Source of the DNA: an uncultured Phycisphaerales bacterium
GTDB taxonomy: Bacteria; Planctomycetota; B15-G4
Length of the DNA: 64,000 nucleotides
Assembly (NCBI GenBank): GCA_964490005.1
Contig: CAZBBB010000004.1
Coordinates: 888-64,887, forward strand
Direction of reading: 5' to 3'
The notes under the pieces were generated by a model. That model saw only the letters and a list, made by a program, of their open reading frames with translations. It did no database searches and had not been told where the DNA came from. A program made the translations under genes and the position numbers. This document shows positions 4,838 to 59,171 of the stretch, one piece after another; positions within the stretch are counted from its first letter, which is position 1, and every line of letters begins with the position of its first letter.

Positions 4838-4900
4838 GCTCTCAGTCGCTCCGGGCCGCTCCCGCGGCGGCGGCGACCATACGTCGGCGTCGGCGGGACA

Positions 4901-10172: not shown

Positions 10173-10390
10173 GGGGCGGTCCGCCGGGTCGGTGCGGGAA
10201 GCCGGGAAGGCGTTCGATCCGGCGCCCCGGCAAGCCTGTTATGATCGCCTCTCCGGCCGCGGATTACAACGGCTGGAGCGCCGTCTAAGATGCTGGCACG
10301 ACGGGACTTAACACCGATCGTCGCCGGCGCCCCACGACCGCGATCCCGTTCCGCTCCCACGCGTTCGCCCACGCCCCGCCCCCCCACTCC

Positions 10391-15500: not shown

Positions 15501-15574
15501 GTCGTCGATCTCCGGCGGGCGAGAGGCCCGTCCGGGCCCTTGCCCGCGACGATACCCGAGCGCACCCCGGCCCT

Positions 15575-28123: not shown

Positions 28124-29134
28124 TTGTCGAACGATCAGGACATCCTCGCGGGCGCCCGCGCGCTGCTCGCCGCCGAGGCCCAGGCGCTCGGGCTGATGCT
28201 GGAGACGCTCGATGCCGACTTCGTCCGCGCCGTGCGGCTGATCGCCGCCTGCGAGGGCCGCGTCGTCACGACCGGCATCGGCAAGGCCGGCATCATCGCC
28301 CGCAAGATCGGCGCGACCCTGGCGAGCACCGGCACGCCGTCCGACTTCCTGCATCCGTCCGAGGCGCTGCACGGCGATCTCGGACGCGTCACGCGCCGCG
28401 ACCTGGTGCTGGCGCTCTCCAACAGCGGCACGACCGACGAGCTGCTGCGGCTCGTCGGGCCGCTGCGGGACATCGGCGCCAAGCTCGTCGCCATCACGGC
28501 CGAGGCCGACTCGCCGCTCGGCCGCCATGCCGACGTCGTGCTCGACTACGGCCACGTCACCGAGGCCTGCCCGCTGGGCCTCGCGCCGACCACGAGCACG
28601 ACCGTCATGCTGGCGCTGGGCGACGCCCTCGCCATGGCCGTGCTGTCCGAGCGACGCTTCTCCCCCGAGGAGTTCGCCCGCTTCCACCCCGGCGGCAACC
28701 TCGGCCGCTCGCTGATGAAGGTCGAGGAGGCCATGCGGCGCGGCGAGCGGCTGCCGCTGCTCGCCGCCGGCTCGACCCTCGCGCAGGCCGTCGAGCGCAT
28801 GACGTCCACGCCGGGTCGGCCGGGCGCCGTGATCGTCGTCGGGCCCGACGAACGCTTCGTCGGCCTGTACACCGACGGCGACCTGCGCCGCCACCTGCTG
28901 GTGGCCGATCGCGAGGGCCGCTGGGACCTGCTGCGCCGGCCCGTCGACGGCTTCATGACGTCGACGGCGACGTCCGTGCGCCCCTCGCAGCTCGTCGCCG
29001 AGGCGCTGCACATCCTGCGCGAACGGCAGATCGACCAGCTGCCGGTCGTGGACGAGGCGGGCCGCGCCGTCGGCCTGCTCGACGTGCAGGACCTGCTCGC
29101 GATCCGCGCCATCGCGCCGTCGGGCGCGCCATGA
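28124..29134 (+). CDS. kdsD: Arabinose-5-phosphate isomerase (SIS + tandem CBS)
   Basis: TTG start (MSNDQDILAG) with GGAAGG upstream. Part of ORF 27275..29134. SIS motif VTTGIGKAG and a CBS pair. Confidence 0.85.
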   Translation: MSNDQDILAGARALLAAEAQALGLMLETLDADFVRAVRLIAACEGRVVTTGIGKAGIIARKIGATLASTGTPSDFLHPSEALHGDLGRVTRRDLVLALSNSGTTDELLRLVGPLRDIGAKLVAITAEADSPLGRHADVVLDYGHVTEACPLGLAPTTSTTVMLALGDALAMAVLSERRFSPEEFARFHPGGNLGRSLMKVEEAMRRGERLPLLAAGSTLAQAVERMTSTPGRPGAVIVVGPDERFVGLYTDGDLRRHLLVADREGRWDLLRRPVDGFMTSTATSVRPSQLVAEALHILRERQIDQLPVVDEAGRAVGLLDVQDLLAIRAIAPSGAP

Positions 29135-29640
29135 GCCCGCTGGCCGACCTGCGCCTGCTGGTGCTCGATGTCGACGGCGTCCTGACGGACGGCACGGTCG
29201 TGCTCGGCGCGGGCGAGGAGGAGCTCAAGGCCTTCCACACGCGCGACGGCGCCGGCATGGCGCTGTGGCGCGACGCCGGCCTGCAACTCACCTTCCTCAC
29301 CGGGCGCGGCGGCGCGGCGGTGCGGCGGCGCGCGCGCGAGCTGCGCCTCGACCGCATCTGGGAGCAGGCGCGCGACAAGAGCGCCGCCTTCGACGAGATC
29401 CTCGCGCACTACGGCGTCCGGGCCTCGCAGACCGCGGTCATGGGCGACGATCTGCCCGACCTCGCGATCCTCGCGCGCGCCGGGTTCTCCGCGGCGCCGG
29501 CCGATGCCGCCGCCGACATCCGCGAGCGCGTCGACCTGGTCACGCGCGCGCCCGGCGGCCGCGGGGCCGTGCGCGAACTCATCGAACACATCCTGCGCGC
29601 GACCGACCGCTGGAGCGCGTTGCTGGAGACCCTCCGATGA
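29131..29640 (+). CDS. kdsC: 3-deoxy-D-manno-octulosonate 8-phosphate phosphatase (HAD)
   Basis: 169 aa. LLVLDVDGVLTDG and GDDLPD motifs. ATGA overlap with kdsD. Confidence 0.85.
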   Translation: MSPLADLRLLVLDVDGVLTDGTVVLGAGEEELKAFHTRDGAGMALWRDAGLQLTFLTGRGGAAVRRRARELRLDRIWEQARDKSAAFDEILAHYGVRASQTAVMGDDLPDLAILARAGFSAAPADAAADIRERVDLVTRAPGGRGAVRELIEHILRATDRWSALLETLR

Positions 29641-32486: not shown

Positions 32487-34734
32487 CCGACGCGCACTGG
32501 GCGCCCTGCTCGTGCTGCTGCTCGGCGCCGCGGCCGCGCGGGCGCAGCAGCCGGCCGGCGAACCGGTCGAGATCCGCCCCGGCGGGCCGCAGTACGGCTT
32601 CCGCGACGGCGAGGAGTTCGTCTGGGTGTTCCTCGGCGGCGTCGAGGTGCTGCAGGCCGGCCGGCGCATCCAGGGCGACACGCTCGTGGCGGTGCTCGCC
32701 GCCGACGGCGCGGCGCCCGCCCCCCCCGCCCCGGACGCCAGCGCGCCGATGCTCGTCGGCCACGACCGGCTGCTCGAGCTGTTCTTCGACGGCCACGTGA
32801 GCGTCGAAGAGGGTGACGAGTCGATCTCCAACGCCTCCACCTACCACCTCGACAACCGCACGGGCGTCGCGACGGTGATCGAGGGCGAGCTGCGTTCGTC
32901 GGTCAAGGGGCGCGCGCCGCTCGTCGTGCGCTACGCCATGCTGCGCAAACTGCAGGACGGCACCTCCGAGATGGAGGACCTGACCTACACGACCTGCACG
33001 TACGACAACGCGCACTGGCACATCAAGACGCCCTGGGCGCGCATCGACCCGACGCCGGAGGGCGACATCCTCACGACCGGCGAGAACACCGTGCGGGTCG
33101 GCGGCGCCTCGGTGATGTGGTGGCCGGGCTACGACGTCAACCTCTCGGACGACGACATCCTGCTGCGGCGCCTGCGACTCGGCAGCAGTTCGCGCTTCGG
33201 GACCGAGATCCGCACCGAGTGGGGCGGCAACGCGTCGGAGTTCGCGACCGGGCTCGCGGGCCTGTTCGGGCACGAGGGGCGCGTGAGCGCCAAGTGGGAG
33301 ACCGAGGCCAGCTGGCTCAGTGACCGCGGCTTCTTCTTCGCGCCCGAGCTCAAGTACCACACCGAACACACGCGCGGCCGGCTGCTCGGCGCCTTCATCG
33401 ACGACCAGTCCTCGACCGACGCGCTCGACGTGCCGGTCACCGACAGCTCGCGCGGTCGCATCGACCTCGAGCACCGCACGCGGATCGACGACCGGCGGAC
33501 CCTCGACATCGAGGTCTCGCGCGAGAGCGACTTCAACTTCCTCAAGGAGTACTACGAGAACGAGTACCGCAACGACAAGCCGCAGGAGACCTACGTCTCG
33601 TTCCGCGACGTCGTCGACAACCACGCCAGGACGGCGCTCGTCAGCACGCGCCTCAACGACTTCCAGACGCAGGTCGAGTACCAGCCGCAGCTCGAGGCGC
33701 GCCAGGTCGGCGAGCCGCTGCCCTGGGGCGGCTTCCTGACGGCGCGCGAGTTCATCAGCAACGCGCGCCTGCTGCCCGACGACAGCACCGGCGCCCCCAG
33801 CGCCCGCACGCTGCGCGTCGGCGCGAGCGCCGAGGCCGCCTGGCCGATCGACCTGCAGAACGGCGACCGCATCACGGTGACGGCCGGCGGCGACCTGACC
33901 GGCTTCGACGACACGCTCGCCGACGGCTCGGAGCTGCGCCGCGCGGCCAGCGGCGCCGTCGAGTGGCGCCGCACCTACAGCGGCACGAGCGATGCGCGGA
34001 GCGAGACCTGGAACATCGACGGGCTGCGCCGGATCGTCGAGCCGCGTGTCGGGTACACCAACCGCTTCGAGGTCTCGCACGCCCCCGCCGAGCTGTTCGC
34101 GATCGATTCGGTCGAGACGCTGGCCGAGACCGAGGCGATCACGGTCGGCCTGCGCGACCGCATCCAGACGCACCAGGGCGGCCGCGTCGTGACGCTGCTC
34201 GACACCGACATCGAGCTGCCCTTCTTCCCGCACGCCTCGCGCGACAACGGCGACGACAACTACGGTCCGCTGATGCTCGACACCGTCTGGCGCCCGGGCG
34301 CGAACATCACGGGCCTGTCCGACGCGACGTTCCGCTGGCGGCTCGACTTCGACATCGAGGACCAGCACTACGTCGAGTCCTTCGCCTCCTTCTCCACGAT
34401 GATCGCCGAGGGCCGGCGCCTGTTCATCGGCAGTGCCAAGACCTTCCACGTGCAGAACTACATGACCTACGGCCTCGAGTGGCTGCTCAACAAGCGCTGG
34501 TCGGTGGCGCTCGTCTTCCAGGAGGACGAGCTGACGAACCAGACCGCGCGCAGCGGCATCATCCTGAGGCAGCTGGCGCACTGCTGGATCATCGACTACG
34601 AGATCAGCTCGCGGCGCGGCACGAGCACCGCCGGCAGCAACGAGGACGAAGTGCGCTTCACGCTGCACTTCCAGCCCATCACGGCGGATCCGGGAGCCGA
34701 GCTGGCCGACGTGCTCGGCGGCTCGATCTTCTGA
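32479..34734 (+). CDS. lptD: LPS-assembly outer membrane protein LptD
   Basis: 751 aa. Signal peptide (ALGALLVLLLGAAAARAQQ), an N-terminal OstA-like domain and a large C-terminal beta-barrel region. Overlaps the upstream gene by 8 nt. Confidence 0.8.
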   Translation: MASRRALGALLVLLLGAAAARAQQPAGEPVEIRPGGPQYGFRDGEEFVWVFLGGVEVLQAGRRIQGDTLVAVLAADGAAPAPPAPDASAPMLVGHDRLLELFFDGHVSVEEGDESISNASTYHLDNRTGVATVIEGELRSSVKGRAPLVVRYAMLRKLQDGTSEMEDLTYTTCTYDNAHWHIKTPWARIDPTPEGDILTTGENTVRVGGASVMWWPGYDVNLSDDDILLRRLRLGSSSRFGTEIRTEWGGNASEFATGLAGLFGHEGRVSAKWETEASWLSDRGFFFAPELKYHTEHTRGRLLGAFIDDQSSTDALDVPVTDSSRGRIDLEHRTRIDDRRTLDIEVSRESDFNFLKEYYENEYRNDKPQETYVSFRDVVDNHARTALVSTRLNDFQTQVEYQPQLEARQVGEPLPWGGFLTAREFISNARLLPDDSTGAPSARTLRVGASAEAAWPIDLQNGDRITVTAGGDLTGFDDTLADGSELRRAASGAVEWRRTYSGTSDARSETWNIDGLRRIVEPRVGYTNRFEVSHAPAELFAIDSVETLAETEAITVGLRDRIQTHQGGRVVTLLDTDIELPFFPHASRDNGDDNYGPLMLDTVWRPGANITGLSDATFRWRLDFDIEDQHYVESFASFSTMIAEGRRLFIGSAKTFHVQNYMTYGLEWLLNKRWSVALVFQEDELTNQTARSGIILRQLAHCWIIDYEISSRRGTSTAGSNEDEVRFTLHFQPITADPGAELADVLGGSIF

Positions 34735-35087: not shown

Positions 35088-37777
<2,690 letters not shown>

Positions 37778-39243: not shown

Positions 39244-40617
39244 TCATCGCTGGATGCGCGACTCGAGGTCATGAACGAGCTGCGAAAAGGGGCGATCGGC
39301 GTCGATGCGCTGCTTGACGCGATCGATCGCGTAGAGCACGGTCGAGTGGTCGCGCCCGCCGAAGTGCCCGCCGATCTCCTCGAGGGACAGCGCGGTCAGC
39401 CGGCGCGCGAGGAACATCGCGGTCTGGCGCGGCAACGTGACGGACTGCGTCCGGCGGCGCCCCTGCAGGTCGGCCACGCGCACGTCGAAGTGCTTGCAGA
39501 CGGCCTCCAGGATGCGCTCGATGCCGGTCAGCGGGCGCAGCGAGCCCCCGGGCGGACCGCCGAGCGCTTCGTGCGCCAGGTTCGCGTCGATCTCCCGATG
39601 GATGAGCTGGCTGTAGCCGATCACCTTGTTGATCGCCCCCTCGAGCTCGCGGATGTTCGTGTCGACGCGTTCGGCCAGCACGCCGAGGACGTCCTCGGGC
39701 ACGGCGACGCGGCGATCCTTCGCCTTGCGACGCAGGATGGCGACGCGCGTTTCGTAGCCCGGCGCGCCGATTTCGGCCTCCATGCCCCACTTGAAGCGGC
39801 TGACGAGCCGCTCCTTGAGCGAGGGGATGTCCTCGGGAGGGCTGTCGCTCGAGAGGACGATCTGGCGGCCGGAGTTGTAGAGCGCGTTGAAGGTGTGAAA
39901 GAACTCCTCCTGCGTCCGCTCCTTGTTCGCGAGCAGGTGGATGTCGTCGACGAGCAGGATGTCGACGTTGCGGTAGCGGTAGCGGAAGCGGTCGAGGTCG
40001 CGCTGCTCGATCGCGCCGATGAACTGGTTGATGAACGTCTCGGCCGACAGATACAGGATGTTCACCGCGTTGCCCGAGCGCATGGCCTGATGGCAGATGG
40101 CCTGCAGCAGGTGGGTCTTGCCGAGGCCGACGCGTCCGTGGAGGAAGAGCGGGTTGTACGAGGCGGCCGGGGCGTCGGCGACGGCGCGCGCGGCGGCGTG
40201 CGCGAGACGGTTGTTCGGGCCGACGACGAATTCGTCGAAGACGTATTTCTCGTTGAGCACGACGTCGGAGTGGTTGGCGAAGAAGTCGCGGTTCGTGTTC
40301 GCGGGCGCCGGGCCGGGAGCCGGCGCGGCCGTCGGCGGCGCCGGCCCGGCCGTGTCGGCGACGGAGCAGCGGAGCGGGGCATCGACGCCGAGCACGTCGC
40401 GCACGGCGGCCTTCAGCACGTCGCCGTAGTAGGCCGTGATCCAGTCGCGGATGAAGGGGTTGGCCACCGTCACGTGCACGCCCGCCTCGTCGGCGGAGAT
40501 CAGCGCGAGCGACGAGAACCACAGGTCGAACTGCTGCTTGCTGACGAGCCGGCGGATCGCCTCGACCAGGGCCGGCTGGCGCGGGGAGGGTTCGACGGCG
40601 GTCACTTCCTGCTGCAC
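39244..40617 (-). CDS. dnaA: Chromosomal replication initiator protein
   Basis: 457 aa. AAA+ motifs (GRVGLGKTHLL; ILLVDDIHLL) and the C-terminal DNA-binding domain (TLPRQTAMFLARRLT). Confidence 0.95.
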   Translation of the reverse strand: MQQEVTAVEPSPRQPALVEAIRRLVSKQQFDLWFSSLALISADEAGVHVTVANPFIRDWITAYYGDVLKAAVRDVLGVDAPLRCSVADTAGPAPPTAAPAPGPAPANTNRDFFANHSDVVLNEKYVFDEFVVGPNNRLAHAAARAVADAPAASYNPLFLHGRVGLGKTHLLQAICHQAMRSGNAVNILYLSAETFINQFIGAIEQRDLDRFRYRYRNVDILLVDDIHLLANKERTQEEFFHTFNALYNSGRQIVLSSDSPPEDIPSLKERLVSRFKWGMEAEIGAPGYETRVAILRRKAKDRRVAVPEDVLGVLAERVDTNIRELEGAINKVIGYSQLIHREIDANLAHEALGGPPGGSLRPLTGIERILEAVCKHFDVRVADLQGRRRTQSVTLPRQTAMFLARRLTALSLEEIGGHFGGRDHSTVLYAIDRVKQRIDADRPFSQLVHDLESRIQR

Positions 40618-40907
40618 GGCGATGCTCCTGCAAACGCGTTGGGCCTCGGGCGCAACGCACGGCCAGCGACGGAACGGAACTCGCCCCGACGCGCACTCTC
40701 CCGGTTGATCGCGCCCGGCTGTTGCCCGGTGCCGCTTCGCTCACAACGACTCGCCGAGTCCGCCACAGCCGCGTTCCCGCCGCGAGCCCGCGAAGCACGC
40801 ACGCCATCCGATCGCGAGCGTGACACTATGAGCGTTTTCACGTGCCTGTCAACGACGGCACCGCGTGCGCGCGTCGGCGCGACGCGGGACGAAGTGTTCG
40901 GATTCGA

Positions 40908-43902: not shown

Positions 43903-45355
43903 GGCTCTCCGGGTCGGTGGTGTGGAGCACGTGGCGTGGCGGATCCAGCGGGCGCGCCAGGTCGACGAGTCGCCGCCCCCATGATGCAGGCCCTCCGTGC
44001 TCGAGCGCATCCGGAAGCCACGCGAGGACGGTGTCTTGGGGGCGGCCGCGCGGGCTGAGCGTCGCGGTCAGTAGCGAGCGCGGGCGGGTGTGCCAGGCGC
44101 GCTGTTCGGCCAGCCTGCGCATCGCGGACTCCGTCGACCGCCTCCAGCGCTCCGCGCGCGCCGCGATGCGCGCAGGTCCGTCGTCGAACGTGCGGGCGAA
44201 GTCGCGCAGGGCTTCACGCACGGCGTGCTCGGCAGGACCCGACGTGGACCGGGACGCGCCGAGGTCGAGCCCTTCCAGCCCGCCAGGGAGGCTGCCGAGG
44301 AGCGCCGGAGACACGAAGCTCGCTTCGAGGCGCGGCACCAGGACGGGGGCGATCAGTCCGAACTCCTGGTGCAGCAAACGTGCCTCACCCAGATAGCGCA
44401 GTTCGCTCGGCCCGCAGACTTGAGCGACCACCGGCAGCGACGCGGCCTGGACGAGGGGCCTGAGCGCGGCGTGGGGCGAGAAGTCTTCCGGCGATCGATC
44501 GTGGCGGCGGGCGGCCTCCCGATCCTCCGCAGCCACTCGCCGGCGTCGCCCGCCCCGCGACTCCATCACGAGCGGTCGCGGATCGCCGGCATCGAAGGAA
44601 GGCTGGAGACGGGCGGTCCGGGCGAGGTGCTGACCGCGCTCCAGGCTCGCGCGCAGTTGGTCCGGGCGGGTCAGGGCGCGGCGGATAATCTCATCGCCCA
44701 GCGGGCGCAGCGCATGCGCCTCGACCACGCGAAGCCCAAGAGGACCGAACGCGGCAAGCAGAGCGGCGCCATGGACTCTGGAGAGCTCGCAGAGCGCTGA
44801 ACTGTGAACGGATGTCGACTTTAAAACATCATTTAATTGATCACAACATGATTTCAAAGCACTTGTTAGAACCGAATCGTGATTCGTGGCGTACGTGCTG
44901 CGCCACGAAGCGTCGGAGCCGGGCAGGATGCGTGCCCTGAATCTCCGAATGCGGCCATCCAAATCATCGACAAGATCAATGTGATCCACCTCTGAAGAGT
45001 CGTGATCTTCTGTTGCGAGAAGGAACACCGGGACAACCGGACGAGACCAGGCGGACGAGAGATCGCGGGCGAGGGCGACCGCCGTGGCCGCCTTGTGGGC
45101 GATCAGGGCGGCGCCCGCTGCGAAGCAGGGCTGCTGTCCCGCGAGGACGACGAGTGCCCCCGAGGGAGCGGCTTCCCCGCGGAGAACGGCAAAGCCGCCG
45201 TTCCGTCCGGGATCGAGGGCCTGCGCGACGCGCTCGAAGCTTGCGAGCCCGGGCGCATGCCCCATCAGGGCCTGCAGCGACGGATCGCCCCCCCACCAAG
45301 CCTCCGTCCAGGACGCGTGCACCCTCGGCCTGGGCAGCCGACGCTCAGTGCTCAA
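43892..45355 (-). CDS. bshC: Bacillithiol biosynthesis cysteine-adding enzyme BshC-like
   Basis: 487 aa. LAGQQPCF...IAHKAATAVALA...PVVPVFLLATEDHDSSEVDH matches the recalled BshC N-terminal signature (GGQQ..G..HK...PVIPVFW.A.EDHD). Operonic with bshB-bshA. Confidence 0.55.
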   Translation of the reverse strand: MSTERRLPRPRVHASWTEAWWGGDPSLQALMGHAPGLASFERVAQALDPGRNGGFAVLRGEAAPSGALVVLAGQQPCFAAGAALIAHKAATAVALARDLSSAWSRPVVPVFLLATEDHDSSEVDHIDLVDDLDGRIRRFRARILPGSDASWRSTYATNHDSVLTSALKSCCDQLNDVLKSTSVHSSALCELSRVHGAALLAAFGPLGLRVVEAHALRPLGDEIIRRALTRPDQLRASLERGQHLARTARLQPSFDAGDPRPLVMESRGGRRRRVAAEDREAARRHDRSPEDFSPHAALRPLVQAASLPVVAQVCGPSELRYLGEARLLHQEFGLIAPVLVPRLEASFVSPALLGSLPGGLEGLDLGASRSTSGPAEHAVREALRDFARTFDDGPARIAARAERWRRSTESAMRRLAEQRAWHTRPRSLLTATLSPRGRPQDTVLAWLPDALEHGGPASWGRRLVDLARPLDPPRHVLHTTDPESRDG

Positions 45356-46251: not shown

Positions 46252-46832
46252 CAAGACTCCAGGAATGCCGCCAGGATCTGCCCACCGCATGGCGTCAGGA
46301 ACGACTCGGGATGGAACTGAACGCCGTAGTGGGGGCGCTCGGCGTGCCGAAGGGCCATGATATCGCCGTGCGGACTGCGAGCGGAGATGATCCACTCCCG
46401 GGGAAGCCCGACCTCCTCGACCAGCAATGAGTGGTACAGACCGGCATCGAAACGCGGAAGCGCTCGATCGAATGGAGGGCCGCCGTCGTGCGTGATCGAG
46501 ACGGCCCGCCCGTGCGTTGGTCTGGGGGAGCGGACGATCCGAGCCCCGGACGCGAACGCGAGCGCTTGGTGGCCGAGGCACACTCCGAGCAATGGGGTGT
46601 CCGGCCAGATGTCGCTGGCGACCAGCGAAGCTCCGGAGCGTCCGGGATGTCCTGGCCCGGGCGAGAGCACGACATGCGTGTACTCGCGGCGCTTCGAGTC
46701 CCCGACATCGACACGATCGTTGCGAACCACGGCAAGCGAGGCCCCTGGGCGGCAGAGGGCGCCAATGGCCTGATATAAATTATATGTAAACGAATCGTAA
46801 TTATCTATTATTAGTATATTCATATCAGACAT
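46251..46832 (-). CDS. pabA: Glutamine amidotransferase component of anthranilate/aminodeoxychorismate synthase
   Basis: MSDMNILIIDNYDSFTYNLYQ, catalytic GVCLGHQAL, HPES. The first ~25 codons are strikingly AT-rich. Confidence 0.85.
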   Translation of the reverse strand: MSDMNILIIDNYDSFTYNLYQAIGALCRPGASLAVVRNDRVDVGDSKRREYTHVVLSPGPGHPGRSGASLVASDIWPDTPLLGVCLGHQALAFASGARIVRSPRPTHGRAVSITHDGGPPFDRALPRFDAGLYHSLLVEEVGLPREWIISARSPHGDIMALRHAERPHYGVQFHPESFLTPCGGQILAAFLES

Positions 46833-46901
46833 CGCAGCGCGCGTCGACTTCAAAGGGCGGTCACGGCGTTGAGGCGGATAACGTCAATGTTAGTGGTAGA
46901 T

Positions 46902-49047: not shown

Positions 49048-50343
49048 ATGACGCAGCAGGCCAAGTCACGCGACATCATCGTGCGGGAGGATGAATTCGG
49101 CCGCCTGCTCGCGGAGGCCGGCCTGAGCTGCGGCGCTTGGGCGGCGACGCTGCTGCGTGACCGTCGGCTGCTGGCCGATGAAGACGTGGTCGCCGCGTTC
49201 GTGCATCGGGCGCATGAGCTCGAGGCGTTCCTCGACGACTTCGGTGCACGCGAGAATCGAACGTTCGTGATGCTCGGCGAACTCGCGGCATCCCTGCACG
49301 GGCTCGCGACCGTGAAGACCAATGCCCTGCACCTGACCGCGCGGCTGCCGCGCTACCATGTGCTCATCGACAGCGGCCCGCTGGCTGCCGCGCTCGAGCA
49401 GGCGCACGTGATTCTGGACGACAGCCTGACCGCCCTGCTCGAAGCCTTCGCCAACGAGAGCCGCCGTTGGCTGCGAGACGACCTCGAGATCGCGCTGCCG
49501 ACGGGCGGACTGTCATCGCAGCGGCAACTCCTTCCGAGAAACCTCGACGAAGGCGAGACGGTCGACGAGCGCCAGCACATCGCGGAGATCGGTGCCCGGT
49601 TTCTGGCCATTCTTGCGACAAGCCGGAGCCTGGAACTCGGCCACAAGCGACCGATCAGGGAACTGCGGGACTTCGTGGCCGAGCACGCCACGGAGGCTCG
49701 CTGCCGCTGGTACGAGTCCTCCGTGCACAGCATTCAGTCCATGTACGACACCTACGTGCTGAACACCGCGGTGGAGCGCGACCACCCCTGGTTGAAGTCG
49801 ATGCGCGGACACGCGTCGGTTGCATTGCACCTGCTCGAGATGGCGACGGGGCTGGTGCACTTCTACGAGCGGCACGAGAACGACATCCGACATGAGCGGG
49901 CACGCCAAGCCATCGCGAAACTCGTGGCAAAGGACGAAGTCCTCGACGTCGCTGTTAATATAAGCCTAAGGCAGGCATATATTTACGTTGAGTCTGCGGC
50001 GGCAACGGCCAGTCAGATCTTGCGCACGTTCGTGAGGCATGGCGTCGCCAACCTGCGGCTTCTGCCGGGCATCACGCTGCACGCTCGGCCGCTCGCGCTC
50101 GTCGCCCAGGTTGCGAGGCATTACGGCACGCCGCTCGAGATCGACTTCGACGGCGACTCATGTGCCGCGGGGTCGCTCATGAGCCTGATCCTGCTCGGGG
50201 GCAAGCACCCCCGGCCCGTCGAGATCACGGCGCGAGGCGATGCCAGGGCGCTCCGAGACCTTGAAATTCTCTTCGCGGCGGGCCTTGGCGAGGGCGGCCG
50301 GGCATTGCCCCCGGAGCTCGACTACCTGCGCGCCAGGAATTAA
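49048..50343 (+). CDS. Protein with unknown 340-aa N-terminal domain fused to C-terminal HPr-family phosphocarrier domain
   Basis: 431 aa. The C-terminus LRLLPGITLHARPLALVAQVARHYGTPLEIDFDGDSCAAGSLMSLILLGGKHPRPVEITARGDARALRDLEILF matches HPr (His in GLHARPA; Ser region; GxxxxAxG). Confidence 0.6.
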   Translation: MTQQAKSRDIIVREDEFGRLLAEAGLSCGAWAATLLRDRRLLADEDVVAAFVHRAHELEAFLDDFGARENRTFVMLGELAASLHGLATVKTNALHLTARLPRYHVLIDSGPLAAALEQAHVILDDSLTALLEAFANESRRWLRDDLEIALPTGGLSSQRQLLPRNLDEGETVDERQHIAEIGARFLAILATSRSLELGHKRPIRELRDFVAEHATEARCRWYESSVHSIQSMYDTYVLNTAVERDHPWLKSMRGHASVALHLLEMATGLVHFYERHENDIRHERARQAIAKLVAKDEVLDVAVNISLRQAYIYVESAAATASQILRTFVRHGVANLRLLPGITLHARPLALVAQVARHYGTPLEIDFDGDSCAAGSLMSLILLGGKHPRPVEITARGDARALRDLEILFAAGLGEGGRALPPELDYLRARN

Positions 50344-50481: not shown

Positions 50482-51369
50482 ATGGGCGTGGATCGCAGGC
50501 TTGGGCGCGGGCTGGACAGCCTGATCTCCAGGACGACGGTAGAGGTAGGCGCCGGATCTCCTGCTGGGAGGCTCGTGGAGATCCCGGTGGCGATGGTCGA
50601 CCCGAACCCGGATCAGCCTCGCAAGTCGATGAATGAAGCCACTTTGGATGGATTGGCTGCCTCGATTAAGGCGCATGGGGTGCTGCAGCCGATCGTGGTC
50701 CAAGCCAGAGGGGCGCGTTATGAGCTCGTCGCCGGTGAGCGCCGACTTCGGGCTTCGAAGCGAGCGGGCCTCGAGACCGTTCCCGCGATCATCCTGGAGG
50801 TCGGGCCGGACAAGTCACTTGAGCTGGCGCTGCTCGAGAACATCCAGCGGGAGGACCTGGGAGCACTGGAAGAGGCATCGGCCTACGACGCCCTCATCGA
50901 ACGACTCGGCCTGACGCATCAGGCGCTTGCCGACCGCATCGGCAAGAGCAGGGCCTTCGTCACGAACAGTCTCAGGCTGCTGGAGCTGCCAGATGCCGTC
51001 AAGCGCCTGGTGCAGAGCGGAGCGCTTGCAGCCGGGCAGGCTCGTGCGCTGCTTGGCGCTCCGACTCCCGCCGATGTTGCCAGCCTCGCCATTGAGGCGG
51101 CGCGCAACCATTGGTCAACGCGCGAAGTTGAGAGCAGGGTGCGAGCCCTTTCGAAAGCCCGTGGGGGGCGCAAGGCGCGCCGCGTACACACCGAGATGAA
51201 GTCGCGATCAAGCGAAGAACTACGAACGTTATTCGGAACTAAGGTGACAGTAAGGGAGAACGATGGGCGCGGCGAGGTTGCGCTGGCGTTCTATTCGGCG
51301 CAGGATCGCGACAGACTGCTCCACTTGCTGCTCATCGGCGGCCGCAGTGCGGAGCGCCAGGGCGGCTAG
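50482..51369 (+). CDS. parB: Chromosome partitioning protein ParB/Spo0J
   Basis: 295 aa. GRGLDSLI N-terminus, LQPIVV, GERRLRAS box and HTH, plus a C-terminal dimerisation domain. Confidence 0.85.
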   Translation: MGVDRRLGRGLDSLISRTTVEVGAGSPAGRLVEIPVAMVDPNPDQPRKSMNEATLDGLAASIKAHGVLQPIVVQARGARYELVAGERRLRASKRAGLETVPAIILEVGPDKSLELALLENIQREDLGALEEASAYDALIERLGLTHQALADRIGKSRAFVTNSLRLLELPDAVKRLVQSGALAAGQARALLGAPTPADVASLAIEAARNHWSTREVESRVRALSKARGGRKARRVHTEMKSRSSEELRTLFGTKVTVRENDGRGEVALAFYSAQDRDRLLHLLLIGGRSAERQGG

Positions 51370-51458: not shown

Positions 51459-51827
51459 TCAGGCCCCGGCGGTCGCGGGGGGGAAGCTGTCGACCGCCTG
51501 CAGGAGCTTTCGCATCCAGGGCGTTGTCGCATGCGACGGATTGCGAGCGACGGACTGCTCGGCGAGCTGGCGAGCGCGTTCGAGCGACCCGGCATCGCCC
51601 TTGTCGAACAACATCACGGCGAGTTGGTAATCCAACCACGGCATGGCTTCGGTCGACTCCGCTTTCACGCGGGCGGCTTCAAGGGACTCGACGGTCGCCC
51701 CGGAACTCGTGGCCGCGAAGAGCTCGTCCCAGCCCGCGCCCGTAGAGGCGGCCAACTGATAGCGAACGACCACCACGATCACCGCGGCGACCGAGACAGC
51801 GAGAAGAAGTCGAATGCCCTTGCTCAT
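51459..51827 (-). CDS. Small N-terminally anchored membrane protein, hypothetical
   Basis: 122 aa. TM LLLAVSVAAVIVVVV, then a helical soluble part. Confidence 0.4.
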   Translation of the reverse strand: MSKGIRLLLAVSVAAVIVVVVRYQLAASTGAGWDELFAATSSGATVESLEAARVKAESTEAMPWLDYQLAVMLFDKGDAGSLERARQLAEQSVARNPSHATTPWMRKLLQAVDSFPPATAGA

Positions 51828-52296
51828 GCTTTATTGGTCTTTTGAATGATGTATAGAATGATGTTAATGAAACGTTGATTCCATAATACATGCATCGCGA
51901 TCGACGCGTCCGAGGACTGCAATCAAGTCACCGCTCGTCGATCGACATCCGAAGCGCGTTTCGCTGCACGCGCTGCGCCTGCCGGCAAGGATGCGGCATG
52001 GAGGGCGCGTTCCCGGAAGCCAGCCGAGATCCACGGCCAACATCGGGGCACGCCGGACGCACGCATCGGAGACCGCAACACGCCGGCTCATTGTGATGCG
52101 CCTGAGTGCGCGGCACAAGCGAGGTCGTTCGGGACGATGTCCTTTCCATGACGGGGGCGTCGGACACCTTGTCGCGGTCGAGGGGCGTGAGCCAAGATCC
52201 GTTCCTGCACCTACGGCGGCCGCTCGGCCCTCCCCTGCTCGACCTGTCGTTCCCGAGCCCTCCGAGACCCGCGCCGCTTCCCCCAGGAGTCGTCCC

Positions 52297-54453
52297 ATGC
52301 TGATCGCCCTCGTTGCCGCCGCCGCCCTCGGCGTCGCGCCTGCCCCCAAGATCGATGACCCCGCAGCGCTGCTGCCGGCGGACACGCTGATCTACTTCGG
52401 CACGCACAGCGTGCAGGCGAGCGCCGCGGCGAATTCGAAGTCCGCGATGCACCTGATCCTCGGCGAGCCCGAAGTGAAGGCCTTCATGCAGAAGCCCGTC
52501 GCGGGCGCCGACCGCATGCTCAGGGCGCTTCTCGATGACGCCGGCGCCGACCCGGCCCAAGCGGAGCGCCTTTCGGTCTCGAAGCTCATGGCCGGCGAGA
52601 GCGTCGCTCCGATCGGCAAGCTGTTCGTCGCGCTGACGCATGTCGGACTGCCGGTGCCGGGCGACGGACAGCTCGGCGCGCCCGACGTGGGGCTCATCGT
52701 CGGAGTGGAACTGCTCGACGCCAACGACCTCGGGCTCGTCCGCCAGCTGTGGGACAAGATCCCGCTGCTGGAGGAGACCGGAACGCACGCCGGACAGGCG
52801 TACTTCCAGAAGACGAGCCCGGAGGGGATGGTGATCGGCCTCTCCTTCGTCGGCAACCTCGCCATCGTCAGCATGTCGATGAAGTCGCTGCGCGCCGCGC
52901 TCGATCGCGCGGCCGGACAGGGCGCGTCGCTCGCCGAAGCCGCGGACTACGCCAAGCTCGTCACGACGGCCGGCGGCATCGAAGCCGGAGGGTCGAGCTG
53001 GATCGTGCGCGCCGCGGACGTCTCGAAGCTCATCCGCGGCGTGATGAGCATGGCGCTCGCGATGGAGGCGGCCGACGAGCCGGAGCTTTCCGGCAAGCTG
53101 CTGGCGGTGTACGACAGCATCGGGCTGGATGCGCTCACCTGGCTGGGAGGCGTGTCGCACCGCGACCTCGCCGGCCGCGTGCATTCGACCAGCGCCGTCC
53201 ATGTCGATCCGTCGATCAAGGGTCTGATCGGAGACTGCCTCGGCGCCGGCATGACGCTCGACGCGGCGCGTCTCGACTCGGTGCCGGCCAACTGCCTGTC
53301 GATGACGGCGGGCTCGATCGACGTCCTTCCGCCGATCTACGACTTCGCCATGAAGGCGGTCGAGACCTTCGCTGCCGAGGAGTTCGGCGAGATCCAGGCG
53401 ACGATCAAGGGCGTGATGGGCGAGTACGACCTGAGGAACGACCTGCTCGCCAACGTGCACGGCGCCTTCCTGAGCTACTCGATGCCCGGCGAAGGCTTCC
53501 CGGGCACGCCGACGTCGGTCATGCGCATGGAAGTGCGCGACGGCGAGCGGTTCCTCGGCGCGATCTCGCAGCTCGCGAGCGGCCTGAGCGCGATGTTCTT
53601 CGCCGGGCAGCCCGTCACGCTCAAGACGAGCGAGCACGAGACCTGGGCCTTCAACGAGCTCGACATCTCGCGCACGCCGCTCGCCATGTCGATGATGCAG
53701 CCCGCCTTCGTCATCGACGGCCAGGAACTCGTGATGAGCCTCGAGTCGGGCAAGGCGCTCAAGACGGCGCTCAACGGGCTCGGCGGCGCCACGCCGCTGT
53801 CGAAGAACGCCGACCTGGCCGCCTTCGTGGCTTCCGCGAAGCGTCGCGGCGAGCTGTCCGCGCTGACCTATTCCGACAACGCACGCACCTTCGGCGCGCT
53901 CTACGGGCAGGTCGCGGGAATGGCCGGCATGATGGCGGGCGGATTGGGCGACCTGCCCGTCGATCTCGCGCTCATGCCGAGCGAGCAGTCGATCACCAAG
54001 CATCTCACGTCGAGCTACTCGGCGGCCTTCACGATGGACGGCGGCCGCACGTACGTCGGCGTCAGCGAATCCCAGTTCCAGGTCAGCGACTTCATGCCGC
54101 TGGCGGTGCTGGGAGGAATGCTCGTCGCTTCGGTCGCGACGGGCGAGTCGATCGAGGCGCCTCCGGTCGAACTCGACCCGGCCGAACGGGTGCAGCGCGA
54201 CCTGGCCGAGATCAAGGCCGGGATGACGGTGTTCAAGCTGGCGGAGAACCGCTACCCCGACTCGATCGCGGACCTGATCAAGCCGTTGGCGGACTTCCCC
54301 GAGGGTTGCCTGAACCGCGACAGCGTGCCGGTGGACCCGTGGGGCAACGCCTACTCCTTCAGGCTGAACGAGAAGGGCAAGCCGGTCGTGTGGAGCTTCG
54401 GCCCGAACGGCGTCGATGACTCCGGCAGCGGCGACGACATCGTCAAGGGCTGA
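52297..54453 (+). CDS. Secreted 718-aa protein with C-terminal T2SS pseudopilin GspG-like (T2SSG) domain
   Basis: Internal Met MLIALVAAAALGVAPAP (Sec signal) of ORF 51991..54453. The C-terminus LAEIKAGMTVFKLAENRYPDSIADL...DPWGNAYSFRLNEKGKPVVWSFGPNGVDDSGSGDDI resembles the GspG/PulG C-terminal domain. No GFTLIE prepilin leader. Confidence 0.55.
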   Translation: MLIALVAAAALGVAPAPKIDDPAALLPADTLIYFGTHSVQASAAANSKSAMHLILGEPEVKAFMQKPVAGADRMLRALLDDAGADPAQAERLSVSKLMAGESVAPIGKLFVALTHVGLPVPGDGQLGAPDVGLIVGVELLDANDLGLVRQLWDKIPLLEETGTHAGQAYFQKTSPEGMVIGLSFVGNLAIVSMSMKSLRAALDRAAGQGASLAEAADYAKLVTTAGGIEAGGSSWIVRAADVSKLIRGVMSMALAMEAADEPELSGKLLAVYDSIGLDALTWLGGVSHRDLAGRVHSTSAVHVDPSIKGLIGDCLGAGMTLDAARLDSVPANCLSMTAGSIDVLPPIYDFAMKAVETFAAEEFGEIQATIKGVMGEYDLRNDLLANVHGAFLSYSMPGEGFPGTPTSVMRMEVRDGERFLGAISQLASGLSAMFFAGQPVTLKTSEHETWAFNELDISRTPLAMSMMQPAFVIDGQELVMSLESGKALKTALNGLGGATPLSKNADLAAFVASAKRRGELSALTYSDNARTFGALYGQVAGMAGMMAGGLGDLPVDLALMPSEQSITKHLTSSYSAAFTMDGGRTYVGVSESQFQVSDFMPLAVLGGMLVASVATGESIEAPPVELDPAERVQRDLAEIKAGMTVFKLAENRYPDSIADLIKPLADFPEGCLNRDSVPVDPWGNAYSFRLNEKGKPVVWSFGPNGVDDSGSGDDIVKG

Positions 54454-54481: not shown

Positions 54482-55186
54482 ATGCGCCGTTCGATGACGG
54501 CGAAGGAAAGCGGACGCGGGTTGGGCGAGGAGCTCCGGATCGAATTCGTCTCGCGCCTCGGCGCGGTCGCGAACTCGGCCCTGTGCGCATTGACGCGCAT
54601 GCGCCTCGTCGACCCGCCCTACGCGCTGCGGCGACGGTCGGGTGCGGGCGCTGGCCGCTGCGTCTACGCGGTCTGGCACGAGAACCTCTGGCACGGCATG
54701 CACGCGCTCAAGCATCAGGGCGTGCACGCGATGGTCTCTTCGCACCGCGACGGCGAGATCATCGCCCGCATCCTGCGCCGCGCGGGCTTCGGCCTGCTGC
54801 GCGGCAGCAGCACGCGCGGCGGCGCCAAGGCCCTGCGCGACCTCGCGCGCGTGGCGCGCGAAACCGACGACGACATCGTCGTCACCATCGACGGACCCAA
54901 GGGCCCGCCGCGCGTCGTCAAGGAGGGCGTGCTCTTCGCCGCGAGCCGCACCGGACTGCCCATCGTCCCGATGGGGCTGGCGGTCGATCGCGCCTGGCGC
55001 GCGCGCTCCTGGGACCGCATCGTGATCGGCAAACCCGGCGCGCTCGTCTCGGTCGCGTTCGGCGAAGAACTGCACGTCCCGCGCGATGCTCGACGCGAGC
55101 GGCTCCTGCCGGAGTGGGGGCCGCTCCTGGCGGCGGCCATGGAGCGCGTCGAGCGACGCGCCGGCCGCGGCGAGCCGCTCGCCTGA
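54482..55186 (+). CDS. DUF374 family protein (lysophospholipid acyltransferase-like, Kdo-transferase associated)
   Basis: AVWHENLW...MVSSHRDGEIIARILRRAGFGLLRGSSTRGGAKAL...VTIDGPKGPPRVVKEGVLFAASRTGLPIVPM matches the DUF374 signature. Confidence 0.65.
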   Translation: MRRSMTAKESGRGLGEELRIEFVSRLGAVANSALCALTRMRLVDPPYALRRRSGAGAGRCVYAVWHENLWHGMHALKHQGVHAMVSSHRDGEIIARILRRAGFGLLRGSSTRGGAKALRDLARVARETDDDIVVTIDGPKGPPRVVKEGVLFAASRTGLPIVPMGLAVDRAWRARSWDRIVIGKPGALVSVAFGEELHVPRDARRERLLPEWGPLLAAAMERVERRAGRGEPLA

Positions 55187-56708: not shown

Positions 56709-57575
56709 TCAGCCGCCCGCGGCGGGGGCGCGCTCGCCGGTCGGCGCCGGCTGTCCGTTGACGACGAGGTTGACCACCGCGAGCACCTGTTCGTGCTTGC
56801 CCATGCCCGGCAGCTCCATCACGTTCGTGATGCGCGTCGGGATCGTGATCTCGCCGAACGTGGCGTAGAGCATCTGCGTCTGGCTCGTCTGGCGCATCAT
56901 GCCGCCGGCGATGTCCGTGAGGGTTTCCTGCCGGTCCATGAGCAGCGCCTCGTTCGTCTCGCTGGCCTTGCGCCACACGTAGCTGCTCGTGACCTTCACG
57001 GGCAGGGCGCCCATGGGCGTCTGCTGCTCCATCTCGATCACGCTGCGCCGCAGCGTGTTGTCCTCGTCGAAGTGGTACGACTGCGCCTTGACGCCGCCGG
57101 CCGCGGCCGCCGCGTCGGCGACGTTCACGACGACCAGGCCGTCCTGGGGCGCGGCCATCGTCGCCACGCCCGTCTCGAGCAGCGAGCTGAGCGGGCGGTT
57201 GAGCATGCTCACGAGCACCTGCTTGCCGTTTTCGATCGCGCCCGCGCGCACGGCCTCGGGCGGCACCTGGGGCGGGAGTTCGAGGGCGTCGTTGGCGGTG
57301 ATCGTCGCCGTCACGGGCGTGCCGGCGGCCCAGCTCACGTGCACCGTCCCGACCTTGCCGATGGTCGGCAGGTCGACGTCGACGTCGAAGGCCAGGCTGG
57401 CGAGGCCGGCCTTCTGCGGGTCGTAGAGCAGCGACTCGGCCTCCATCAGGTAGCCGCGCACCATCTCCGAGGTCTGCGGCGCGGCCTCCGGAGCGCCGGG
57501 CGCGGGCGTCGTCGTCTCGGGTGCGTCCTGGAACGCGCCCATGGCGAGAAGGAGGGCGATCAGCATGGTCGGCAT
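56709..57575 (-). CDS. Secreted hypothetical protein
   Basis: 288 aa from an internal Met of ORF 56709..59354 (MPTMLIALLLAMGAFQDA signal). The upstream part of that ORF is the antisense of purF and is rejected. Confidence 0.45.
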   Translation of the reverse strand: MPTMLIALLLAMGAFQDAPETTTPAPGAPEAAPQTSEMVRGYLMEAESLLYDPQKAGLASLAFDVDVDLPTIGKVGTVHVSWAAGTPVTATITANDALELPPQVPPEAVRAGAIENGKQVLVSMLNRPLSSLLETGVATMAAPQDGLVVVNVADAAAAAGGVKAQSYHFDEDNTLRRSVIEMEQQTPMGALPVKVTSSYVWRKASETNEALLMDRQETLTDIAGGMMRQTSQTQMLYATFGEITIPTRITNVMELPGMGKHEQVLAVVNLVVNGQPAPTGERAPAAGG

Positions 57576-57716
57576 GGCAGGGTCTCCGCGAAGGCGCGGC
57601 ATCGTAACCGAAGGGGCGTCGGCGAACGATTCGGCGCACGGCGCCCCCGGTGCGTGGCGGCCGTGCAGCCGCGCGGCTAGAATCGCTGGCTCCCACCGAG
57701 GCGGCGAGCGAACGAG

Positions 57717-59171
57717 ATGTGCGGATTCATCGGCATCGTCGGCCCTCCCGGAGCGGAGGTCTTCCCGCAGCTGATCTCGGGGCTGCTGGCCATCCAGCAC
57801 CGCGGCCAGGACGCCGCCGGCGCGCTCACCTGGGACGGCCGGTTCCACCTGCACAAGGGGCGGGGGCTGGTGCGGGACGCCTTCGGCGAGGCCGAGGCGC
57901 AGCGCCTGCGCGGCTGGGCCGGCATCGGCCACGTGCGCTACCCGACCGTGGGCGCGGGCAGCGTCGAGGACGCGCAGCCCTTCGTGATCGCCTATCCGTT
58001 CGGCATCGGCATGGTGCACAACGGCAACGTCACGAACTTCGACGAGATCAAGCAGCAGCTCTCCGCCGACTCGCACTGGCACATCAACAGCACCTGCGAT
58101 CTCGAAGGGCTGCTCAACGTCCTGGGCGACGAACTCGCGCAGCAGGAGATCGACACGCTCGCGCCCGAGCACGTGTTCGCGGCGGTCGAGGGCGTCTTCC
58201 GGCGCGTCAAGGGCGCCTACTCCGTCGTCGGCCTGATCGCGGGCGGCGGCATGTACGCCTTCCGTGACCCCTACGGCATCAAGCCGATCATCGTCGGCGA
58301 GCGCACCGACGAGCGCGGCCGCCGCAGCTGGGCCATCGCTTCCGAGAGCGTGCTCATGGACCTGCTCGACTTCCACAGCACCTTCGATCTCGCGGCGGGC
58401 GAGGCGCTGTACATCGACCCCGAGGGACGGCTGCATCGCCGCAAGCTCGCCGACAAGCCGCACTCGCCGTGCCTGTTCGAGTGGGTCTACTTCGCGCGGC
58501 CCGATTCCTTCCTCGACCGCGTCAGCGTCTACAAGACCCGGTTGCGGCTCGGCGAGTCGATGGCCGACGCTTGGCGCGCGACGGGCTGGAGCGCCGACGT
58601 GATCATCCCCGTCCCGGAATCCGCGACGACCTCGGCCATGGCGATGGCGCGCGCCCTCGACATGAAGTACCGCGAGGGTCTCGTCAAGAACCGCTACATC
58701 GGCCGCACGTTCATCATGGCGAGCAATCGCGTGCGGCAGTCCTCGATCCGCCAGAAGCTCAACACGATCCAGCTCGAATTCGAGGGCAAGGACGTGCTGC
58801 TGGTGGACGACTCGATCGTGCGCGGCAACACGTCGCGGCAGATCGTCGACCTCGCGCGCCGCGCCGGGGCGCGCAAGGTCTACTTCGCCAGCGTGTCGCC
58901 GCCACTGCGCCACCCGTGCATCTACGGCATCGACATGTCGACGAAGAACGAGTTCGTCGCCAAGGAACGCACGCCCGCGCAGGTCGCCGAGGCGATCGGC
59001 GCCGACGGCGTGGTCTACCAGTCGCTCGAGAACCTCGAGGCCGCCGTGATGGACGGCAATCCGTCGATCCGGCAGGCGTGCAGCGCCTGCTTCTCGGGGG
59101 TCTACCCCACCGGCGACGTCACCGAAGAGCAACTCGCGCGCATCGAAGCCGAGCGTCTCGTCCAGCAATGA
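57717..59171 (+). CDS. purF: Amidophosphoribosyltransferase
   Basis: 484 aa. MCGFIGIVG N-terminal nucleophile Cys, PRTase motif VLLVDDSIVRGNTS and C-terminal Cys ligands. Confidence 0.95.
   Translation: MCGFIGIVGPPGAEVFPQLISGLLAIQHRGQDAAGALTWDGRFHLHKGRGLVRDAFGEAEAQRLRGWAGIGHVRYPTVGAGSVEDAQPFVIAYPFGIGMVHNGNVTNFDEIKQQLSADSHWHINSTCDLEGLLNVLGDELAQQEIDTLAPEHVFAAVEGVFRRVKGAYSVVGLIAGGGMYAFRDPYGIKPIIVGERTDERGRRSWAIASESVLMDLLDFHSTFDLAAGEALYIDPEGRLHRRKLADKPHSPCLFEWVYFARPDSFLDRVSVYKTRLRLGESMADAWRATGWSADVIIPVPESATTSAMAMARALDMKYREGLVKNRYIGRTFIMASNRVRQSSIRQKLNTIQLEFEGKDVLLVDDSIVRGNTSRQIVDLARRAGARKVYFASVSPPLRHPCIYGIDMSTKNEFVAKERTPAQVAEAIGADGVVYQSLENLEAAVMDGNPSIRQACSACFSGVYPTGDVTEEQLARIEAERLVQQ

Follow-up and report, generated by a model that had tools for sequence, protein, structure and literature searches.

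A conserved planctomycete protein that joins a DUF3352-superfamily domain to a GspG-type pseudopilin module

To our knowledge, all type IV pilin-like proteins studied to date enter the membrane by way of an N-terminal class III signal and are cleaved by a dedicated peptidase, and their alpha1-N segment serves both as membrane anchor and as filament core. GspG, the major pseudopilin of type II secretion systems (T2SS; PulG, XcpT and EpsG; PF08334, TIGR01710), has a basic leader of 6-25 amino acids (aa), and canonical DUF1559/H-X9-DG prepilin-like proteins (PF07596, TIGR04294) have a class III signal at the N-terminus and no DUF3352 domain. DUF3352 proteins (PF11832) are uncharacterised and ~540-575 aa long. 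Here we describe a gene on the forward strand of a 64,000-nucleotide (nt) stretch of DNA from an uncultured Phycisphaerales bacterium (assembly GCA_964490005.1, contig CAZBBB010000004.1, positions 888-64,887; this whole stretch is referred to as the window), whose product has a DUF3352-superfamily domain followed by a GspG-type pseudopilin module. In the conserved family to which it belongs, and in wider relatives, a large Sec-exported domain sits exactly at the leader position, and an N-terminally blocked, Sec-exported and conserved pseudopilin would surprise a pilin specialist.

The resemblance to GspG is extensive, in that the last 125 aa align with mature GspG from one end to the other, share its fold of a long alpha1-C, an alpha-beta loop and two or three strands, and keep the DPWG motif, the acidic C-terminal Ca2+-type loop, the phenylalanine at +1 and an acidic residue at +5. 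Unlike GspG, the fusion protein has a Sec-type signal and a 570-aa domain instead of a short basic leader, Q rather than G at position -1, and an alpha1-N that is interrupted by a linker and is ~7 kcal/mol less hydrophobic on a simple scale; its gene also lies outside any gsp operon at the loci examined. Three features that define GspG are lacking (a class III signal, a hydrophobic alpha1-N and a gsp setting), so the protein is not to be filed as GspG, and the NCBI name 'GspG' on some members is a misnomer; if the fusions are functional, the database label 'type II secretion system protein GspG' on members is to be corrected. The N-terminal domain is of the same superfamily as DUF3352 proteins, but the window protein adds a C-terminal pilin module and has diverged beyond a PF11832 match. 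DUF1559/H-X9-DG proteins supply a sister architecture, in which relatives of the N-terminal domain carry that module instead of the GspG-type head found here. Modular type IV pilins such as PilB and PilC of Streptococcus sanguinis also have a large functional module fused to a pilin moiety (PMC8179133). In those pilins the module follows the pilin, and an N-terminal class III signal allows processing and polymerisation, whereas in the window protein the order is reversed, with the module at aa 20-593 and the pilin at aa 594-718, and processing and polymerisation are apparently lost. Literature searches on T2SSG/PF08334 and DUF3352 found no description of a DUF3352-pilin fusion and no paper on DUF3352. 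The gene and its parts are as follows.

52285-52289, forward strand: Shine-Dalgarno sequence AGGAG, 7 nt 5' of ATG 52297
52297-54453, forward strand: complete gene, DUF3352-like domain fused to GspG-type pseudopilin, 718 aa plus stop (open reading frame, translation, homologs)
52297-52347, forward strand: apolar N-terminal segment, aa 1-17, presumed Sec signal without a basic n-region (alignment A1)
52354-54075, forward strand: DUF3352-superfamily alpha/beta domain, aa 20-593 (AlphaFold2 model, PF11832 matches of relatives)
54073-54090, forward strand: relic prepilin processing site, Q593 (for G-1), F594 (F+1) and D598 (E+5) (PulG alignment, hhalign of A5 against A8)
54082-54147, forward strand: weakly apolar alpha1-N-like helix, aa 596-617 (AlphaFold2 helix 596-615)
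54148-54177, forward strand: acidic, proline-containing linker interrupting alpha1, aa 618-627 (AlphaFold2 model, homolog alignment)
54178-54450, forward strand: GspG head with alpha1-C, DPWG motif, two strands and C-terminal Ca2+-type loop, aa 628-718 (Pfam, Foldseek, hhalign)
54391-54438, forward strand: acidic C-terminal Ca2+-type loop, aa 699-714 (D713/D714 against PulG D124/D125)

A preliminary description of this DNA, made from the sequence alone, had reported a 718-aa protein with a GspG-like C-terminus and no prepilin leader at its N-terminus, and each of these points is borne out. The maximal open reading frame (ORF) spans 51991-54453 on the forward strand, but ATG 52297 is taken as the real start because both the Shine-Dalgarno sequence and the homolog starts support it. 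Between 52096 and 52297 there is no in-frame ATG, GTG or TTG other than this start, the aligned methionine is the called start in 18 of 19 homologs (in P0007 the call reaches further upstream, although this methionine is present there too), and purine runs resembling a Shine-Dalgarno sequence (AAGGA, AAGGAG, GGAGGA, GAGGA) precede it in the related loci L001, L003, L005 and L010. The resulting translation has 718 aa and contains KLAENRYPDSIADL, DPWGNAYSF and WSFGPNGVDDSGSGDDI. The single-ORF architecture recurs in 20 close homologs, in seven species-level genomes from independent assemblies and in 36 representative clusters, and all 20 homologs, at 38-99% identity, match PF08334.

The C-terminus resembles GspG far more than chance would allow. 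Pfam T2SSG (PF08334) matches aa 631-714 with an E value of 1.8e-7 and 31.6 bits (gathering score 21), and the NCBIfam GspG equivalog TIGR01710 scores 24.4 bits, under its cut-off of 88.85. A profile of 20 homologs (A1) searched against Protein Data Bank (PDB) sequences finds PulG (5wda_A, E 6.8e-9), with profile positions 595-715 on PulG residues 2-125, and comparison by hhalign of the family's last ~130 residues (A5, its C-terminal module) with 15 canonical GspG sequences taken from the fetched loci (A8) gives a probability of 99.5% and an E value of 2.4e-23 over 123 columns, beginning three residues ahead of the cleavage site. The AlphaFold2 model of aa 588-718 has a mean predicted local distance difference test score (pLDDT) of 75.8, rising to 86-90 in the head, and its 12 best Foldseek matches in the PDB are all GspG, PulG or EpsG (probability 1.00, template modelling scores 0.5-0.6). 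By homology, the C-terminus is thus a whole mature pseudopilin, aa 594-718, extending from the former processing site to the end. The C-terminal globular domain of ~90 aa recognised in the preliminary description is real as the T2SSG head, but the alignment begins at the processing site and includes the helix at aa 596-617. Because the pseudopilin part includes this alpha1-N-like apolar helix and not only the globular head, the architecture poses a topology problem, to which we return below.

No part of the protein is better conserved than the head with its DPWG core and acidic Ca2+-type loop; mean column identity is 61% in the C-terminal module and 57% in the N-terminal domain, and none of P681, W682, G683, D713 and D714 varies across 25 sequences, which go down to 27% identity. 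In PulG, calcium is bound by D117, S122 and D124/D125 together with backbone carbonyls (PMC13081927). The invariant D713 and D714 align with PulG D124/D125, N704 occupies the position of PulG D117 (N or D across the family), and the loop is two residues longer than in PulG. The head may be calcium-stabilised in the manner of GspG.

The features on which pilin processing and assembly depend are altered. Prepilin peptidases require Gly at -1. Across the family this position is Q, E or H, while F594, D598 and P601 are invariant among the 20 close homologs, and 593 residues precede the aligned processing site in place of a short basic leader. The alpha1-N-like helix, short and with many small residues, has a hydrophobicity sum over 19 residues of +5.7 in the window protein; the sums are +4.6 +/- 1.7 for 25 family members and -2.5 +/- 0.7 for 59 canonical GspG alpha1-N segments, and the two distributions do not overlap (a biological scale with approximate values, summed over the best 19 residues and unweighted by position). 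After the helix, AlphaFold2 predicts aa 616-627 as non-helical with a pLDDT of ~62, the sequence and length of this linker differ between homologs, and the 15 residues that follow the helix have a mean net charge of -2.4 in 61 GspG-type fusions. Over aa 591-610 the pLDDT is 82 and 77 in the full-length model versus 56 and 70 in the isolated C-terminal model, a hint that the helix may be buried in the whole protein. As judged from these residues, the pseudopilin module is complete but disarmed.

The N-terminus of the protein (MLIALVAAAALGVAPAP) is apolar, with zero basic residues, and AlphaFold2 gives a pLDDT below 50 over aa 1-17. It is Sec-like, with neither a prepilin leader nor a class III signal. 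The cleavable signal peptide described earlier as classical is thus right as to its apolar, Sec-like character, but without a basic n-region it is not classical. More distant orthologs, and also most relatives of the N-terminal domain, have canonical Sec signals (R/K, AxA), and what sets the window protein's close family apart is that no basic residue precedes the apolar core.

The full-length AlphaFold2 model (pLDDT 81.6, predicted template modelling score 0.76) shows aa ~20-592 as an alpha/beta domain with two similar beta-beta-alpha-beta4-alpha modules. PF11832 does not match the window protein at E <= 5 (gathering score 26.8 bits), and nine of 25 family members have sub-threshold matches, the best at 24.6 bits versus the required 26.8. 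These matches place DUF3352 model positions ~104-233 on aa ~115-256 in some members and on aa 410-532 in another; falling at two places in the domain, they are consistent with its being internally duplicated. A profile of the N-terminal domain only (A3), searched against 1.84 billion representative proteins, detected 2308 clusters at E <= 1e-3, of which 722 reach E <= 1e-10. Since 34 of 63 profile-detected relatives match PF11832 (best E 3.1e-23), the domain is, by profile relationship, a divergent member of the DUF3352 superfamily, and since the window protein itself has no such match it represents a divergent branch. DUF3352, which the preliminary description had raised as a candidate family, therefore applies at the superfamily level and not as a match of the window protein itself. 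Neither the sequence profile nor Foldseek finds a relative of the domain in the PDB.

The same design recurs widely among relatives of the N-terminal domain. The 117 full-length representatives among the best 150 N-domain profile matches fall into the following C-terminal classes.

36 of 117: GspG-type head
26 of 117: helix ending ..LLPSLSRAREL.. and/or C-terminal ..VLFxDGxV.., of the planctomycete DUF1559/H-X9-DG pilin-like type
41 of 117: end soon after the helix, often with 'SPFGPE', a Gly/Ala-rich helix and a basic tail
14 of 117: other C-terminal ends

A pilin-like C-terminal module of either the GspG or the DUF1559/H-X9-DG type is thus present in 62 of these 117 representatives. Pfam searches of 63 relatives identify DUF3352 in 34, DUF1559 in 10, T2SSG in eight and DUF2950 in two. 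The motif [SY]-[GS]-P-[FWIM]-G-x-[ED] is conserved ahead of the helix, and a profile of mixed classes matches alpha1 of PulG, of Geobacter PilA-N and of a type IV PilA in the PDB. Because the same design is used with both GspG-type and DUF1559/H-X9-DG-type modules, it points to DUF3352 domains and pilin-like modules being functional partners. A pilin origin of the helix is favoured by the sequence comparisons. We also considered that the helix and its acidic residue derive from a C-terminal anchor of the DUF3352 family's own, which is disfavoured by the hhalign comparison and by the PDB matches of the mixed-class profile; in the headless class it may hold.

The headless relatives (P0058, P0060, P0066, P0079 at L088:7543-9426, P0086 and others) end in [SG]P[FW]GPE, a Gly/Ala-rich helix and a short basic tail, which is the layout of a C-terminal sorting signal. 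Headless orthologs share with PEP-CTERM and GlyGly-CTERM signals this three-part layout of motif, helix and basic tail. In the window protein, unlike in such signals, the helix precedes 100 further residues, and no NCBIfam sorting model matches; nor does any NCBIfam sorting-signal or family model match the headless or DUF1559-type relatives.

The fusion protein family is conserved in Planctomycetota at a fixed origin-proximal locus, which we compared with related genomes viewed as 16-22-kb stretches. The immediate neighbours of the gene in the window are these.

50482-51369: parB-like gene
51459-51827, reverse strand: divergent 122-aa protein with an N-terminal membrane anchor (ORF)
51828-52296: divergent intergenic region, 469 nt (GC profile, alignment A4)
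54482-55186, forward strand: DUF374/LpxJ-family acyltransferase homolog, probably co-transcribed with the fusion gene (Pfam PF04028, E 2e-24)

The local order of sigma-70 gene, 431-aa HPr-domain protein, ParB, small anchored protein (reverse strand), fusion gene, DUF374, pyrB, pyrI and purF is identical in L001, L003 and L005, and the genes for ParB, the anchored protein, the fusion protein, DUF374 and PyrBI remain syntenic in these three as well as in L012, L013 and L086. The DUF374 gene, with start candidates at 54416, 54482 or 54494, lies 3' of the fusion gene in all six, directly except in L086, where an 84-aa ORF intervenes. The DUF374 family corresponds to LpxJ, a family of lipid A late acyltransferases (PMC6148475). 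A headless ortholog (P0079 in L088) occupies the same syntenic position as the fusion gene. Two relatives from other classes adjoin genes of glycan or lipid-modification type, namely GT4, GT2, deacetylase and WecA-like genes in L087, and DegT, epimerase, PMT_2 and polyprenyl synthase genes in L091.

The small anchored membrane protein noted previously as a divergent neighbour is present as the 122-aa gene. It has no Pfam or NCBIfam match, and by BLASTP it is 30% identical over 91 aa (E 2e-4) to the protein at L011:1770-2777, which, like its L013 counterpart, carries PF00160. In distant members of the family (25-31% identity; L011-L013 and L086) the divergent neighbour is a 333-335-aa anchored TPR-cyclophilin, and the 122-aa protein is probably a short relative of the N-terminal part of that protein. 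The intergenic region, reported earlier as AT-rich and 470 nt long, measures 469 nt, but its GC content is 0.63 overall (0.71 in the window) and it is AT-rich only at 51828-51927 (0.30-0.50). It contains no consensus sigma-70 promoter, and scanning the locus for consensus promoters and terminators showed nothing notable. A block at ~52133-52205 (GTCCTTTCC..TGAC...CTTGTC...AGATCC), ~100-160 nt 5' of the start codon, is partly kept in relatives and may be a promoter or operator. A secreted protein of ~450-530 aa with no Pfam family is encoded directly 5' of the DUF3352-type gene at L011:4080-5585, L013:4103-5689, L086:5786-7237 and L088:6080-7444 (29% identity, E 9e-54, between L011 and L013). 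In the close family of the window protein a non-coding gap of 380-550 nt replaces it, and tblastn of the 469-nt gap found no remnant of the ~480-aa upstream gene.

No T2SS or type IV pilus (T4P) gene (gspC-M, gspD/E/F, pilB/C/D, prepilin or prepilin peptidase genes) occurs within 8-10 kb in the loci examined, including members down to 25% identity, and a motif scan of the window found neither a GspE Walker-A nor a prepilin motif. Among 30 window ORFs scanned, the only T2SS/T4P-type Pfam match is a PilM_2/T2SSL-like 549-aa gene at 3251-4900 (reverse strand), 47 kb away. Beside that gene, also on the reverse strand, are a 191-aa ORF without a Pfam match (2700-3275) and then a PAS-domain protein (3-2699).

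The architecture is solid, and from it we infer how the protein might work. A non-pilus role, already suggested in the preliminary description, is the most reasonable reading, and our tentative preference is for an exported cell-envelope protein, located in the periplasm, in which the ~570-aa DUF3352-superfamily domain is joined to a disarmed, non-polymerising GspG-type pseudopilin with a role in envelope biogenesis. The Sec-type N-terminus places the DUF3352 domain outside the cytoplasm, and if the helix spanned the membrane the GspG head would lie inside the cytoplasm, a placement that conflicts with the head's conserved periplasmic-type Ca2+ loop. Given that the helix is weak, its C-flank acidic and the head strongly constrained, full translocation is favoured: after Sec export the helix would fail to stop transfer and the mature protein would be periplasmic, with the helix packed on or shielded by the DUF3352 domain, or loosely membrane-attached. 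With a bulky domain on the N-terminus of alpha1, neither cleavage and methylation by PilD/GspO nor stacking into a pseudopilus should be open to the protein. Its head could then serve, away from any filament, as a binding module that is stabilised by calcium and tethers the DUF3352 domain to a partner. Because the gene adjoins lpxJ-type, anchored chaperone-like and origin-proximal housekeeping genes, and never T2SS/T4P genes in the examined flanks, the protein may contribute, together with the LpxJ homolog, to constitutive biogenesis of the envelope or outer membrane, and not to a dedicated secretion apparatus. If functional, it would be a case of the pseudopilin fold reused outside any filament and would provide the first functional handle on the widespread DUF3352, and it suggests that pilin-like modules are linked to the biogenesis of the envelope or of lipid A in Planctomycetota, where many pilin-like paralogs are unexplained.

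Several points weigh against this preferred reading. The LpxJ link is drawn from adjacency within a single lineage whose whole region is syntenic, so that it may reflect gene order only. The flanks viewed cover 16-22 kb of each genome, and a T2SS encoded elsewhere could use the fusion protein. The hydrophobicity sums are approximate and unweighted, and they bear on the helix, which on the Kyte-Doolittle scale reaches 1.3-2.2, borderline for a transmembrane segment; the flank after it is slightly basic in distant GspG-type members (net +1 by eye in L011-L013), and the helix and basic tail of the headless syntenic orthologs resemble a true membrane anchor. These last observations bear on an alternative that we consider unlikely, a type I membrane protein whose signal is cleaved, whose DUF3352 domain is periplasmic, whose helix spans the inner membrane (N-out, C-in) and whose GspG-like head has taken on a new, non-pilin role in the cytoplasm. 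Standard topology rules do yield a cytoplasmic head if the helix is transmembrane, and headless relatives such as P0079, ending in 'SPFGPE', a Gly/Ala-rich helix and a basic tail such as RRGF, look anchor-like. In the close family, however, the helix has only 14-18 apolar and mostly small residues, a hydrophobicity sum of about +4.7 and a C-flank of -2.4, and the retained acidic loop of periplasmic GspG, with D713/D714 invariant, is ill-suited to sub-micromolar cytoplasmic calcium. We know of no cytoplasmic pilin-like domain that has been described.

It is possible, but on balance not expected, that the protein is an accessory of a T2SS or type IV filament whose machine is encoded elsewhere, with the head docking on pseudopilins, GspC/L/M or the secretin and the DUF3352 domain acting as a cap, terminator, plug or docking module for substrates. 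The fold of the head is genuinely that of GspG, with a C-terminal loop close to that of GspG of the Planctomycetes-Verrucomicrobia-Chlamydiae (PVC) type, the repeated fusion of DUF3352 to at least two pilin-like head families suggests a link with pilin biology, and the PilM/GspL-like gene lies in the window. Set against these are the lack of T2SS/T4P genes and motifs reported above, a fixed housekeeping locus by lpxJ-like and pyrBI genes that is unlike the setting of accessory secretion genes, and the 593 residues on the N-terminus of alpha1, which bar the normal filament-core position seen in pseudopilus structures (e.g. 5wda). As the conserved, operon-like partner is an LpxJ/DUF374 homolog, the T2SS/T4P accessory or substrate-docking role offered in the preliminary description stays speculation. 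A real pseudopilin precursor, in which DUF3352 is a giant pro-region cut near Q593|F594 by some other protease so that a leaderless pseudopilin assembles, is highly improbable. It would account for the invariance of F594 and D598, aligned with F+1 and E+5, in the close family and for the conserved motif ahead of the helix in relatives; yet after Sec export the site would be on the periplasmic side, whereas a pilin can be extracted only from a transmembrane segment inserted N-in, the helix has too little hydrophobicity to stay in the membrane and alpha1 is broken by the linker, the N-terminal domain is strongly conserved (57% mean column identity) and widespread alone, unlike a disposable pro-peptide, and the motif matches no NCBIfam sorting-signal model. 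An artefactual joining of adjacent DUF3352 and gspG genes through a frameshift or misassembly can be rejected with near certainty, as nothing was found in its favour, the ORF is continuous, the architecture is conserved in independent assemblies and no start codon with a Shine-Dalgarno sequence is present at the junction.

A broader proposal, which we regard as rather doubtful, is that DUF3352 is a periplasmic receptor or intramolecular chaperone for the apolar alpha1 of pilin-like proteins, and that the fusions (of GspG type, DUF1559/H-X9-DG type and possibly DUF2950 type) form a filament-independent, Sec-exported branch of the type IV pilin superfamily in Planctomycetota. Rosetta-stone logic would then suggest that DUF3352 proteins standing alone in other phyla might handle pilins or pseudopilins in trans.

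Beyond the fusion gene, the window appears to span the chromosomal replication origin region, because it contains a dnaA-dnaN-gyrB cluster and a cumulative GC skew minimum near 34-36 kb.

39244-40740, reverse strand: dnaA
37797-38930, reverse strand: dnaN
35088-37544, reverse strand: gyrB
7650-10238: gyrA, further on

No Rfam family is found in the window. The 80-nt spots of lowest GC are at 44791-44900, 46751-46860 and 51801-51910 (0.31-0.36 GC against a background of 0.71) and may represent AT-rich elements of promoters or of the origin. High third-position GC is seen in large ORFs at 28959-34734 (forward strand), 23621-25228 (forward strand) and 12043-15711, with lengths of 1175, 774, 535 and ~1000-1200 aa; none has a Pfam match at E <= 1e-4, and at 12-15.7 kb two overlapping ORFs on opposite strands are indistinguishable. 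The 431-aa protein at 49048-50343 (forward strand), whose sole recognisable part is a C-terminal HPr domain at aa 344-409, is conserved in every relative examined, where its gene has the sigma-70 gene on one side and parB on the other. Downstream of the fusion gene, an Aminotran_3 gene follows pyrI in L001, L003 and L005 and is absent from the window (56709-57680), where pyrI ends at 56708 and purF (57681-59171) follows ~1 kb on.

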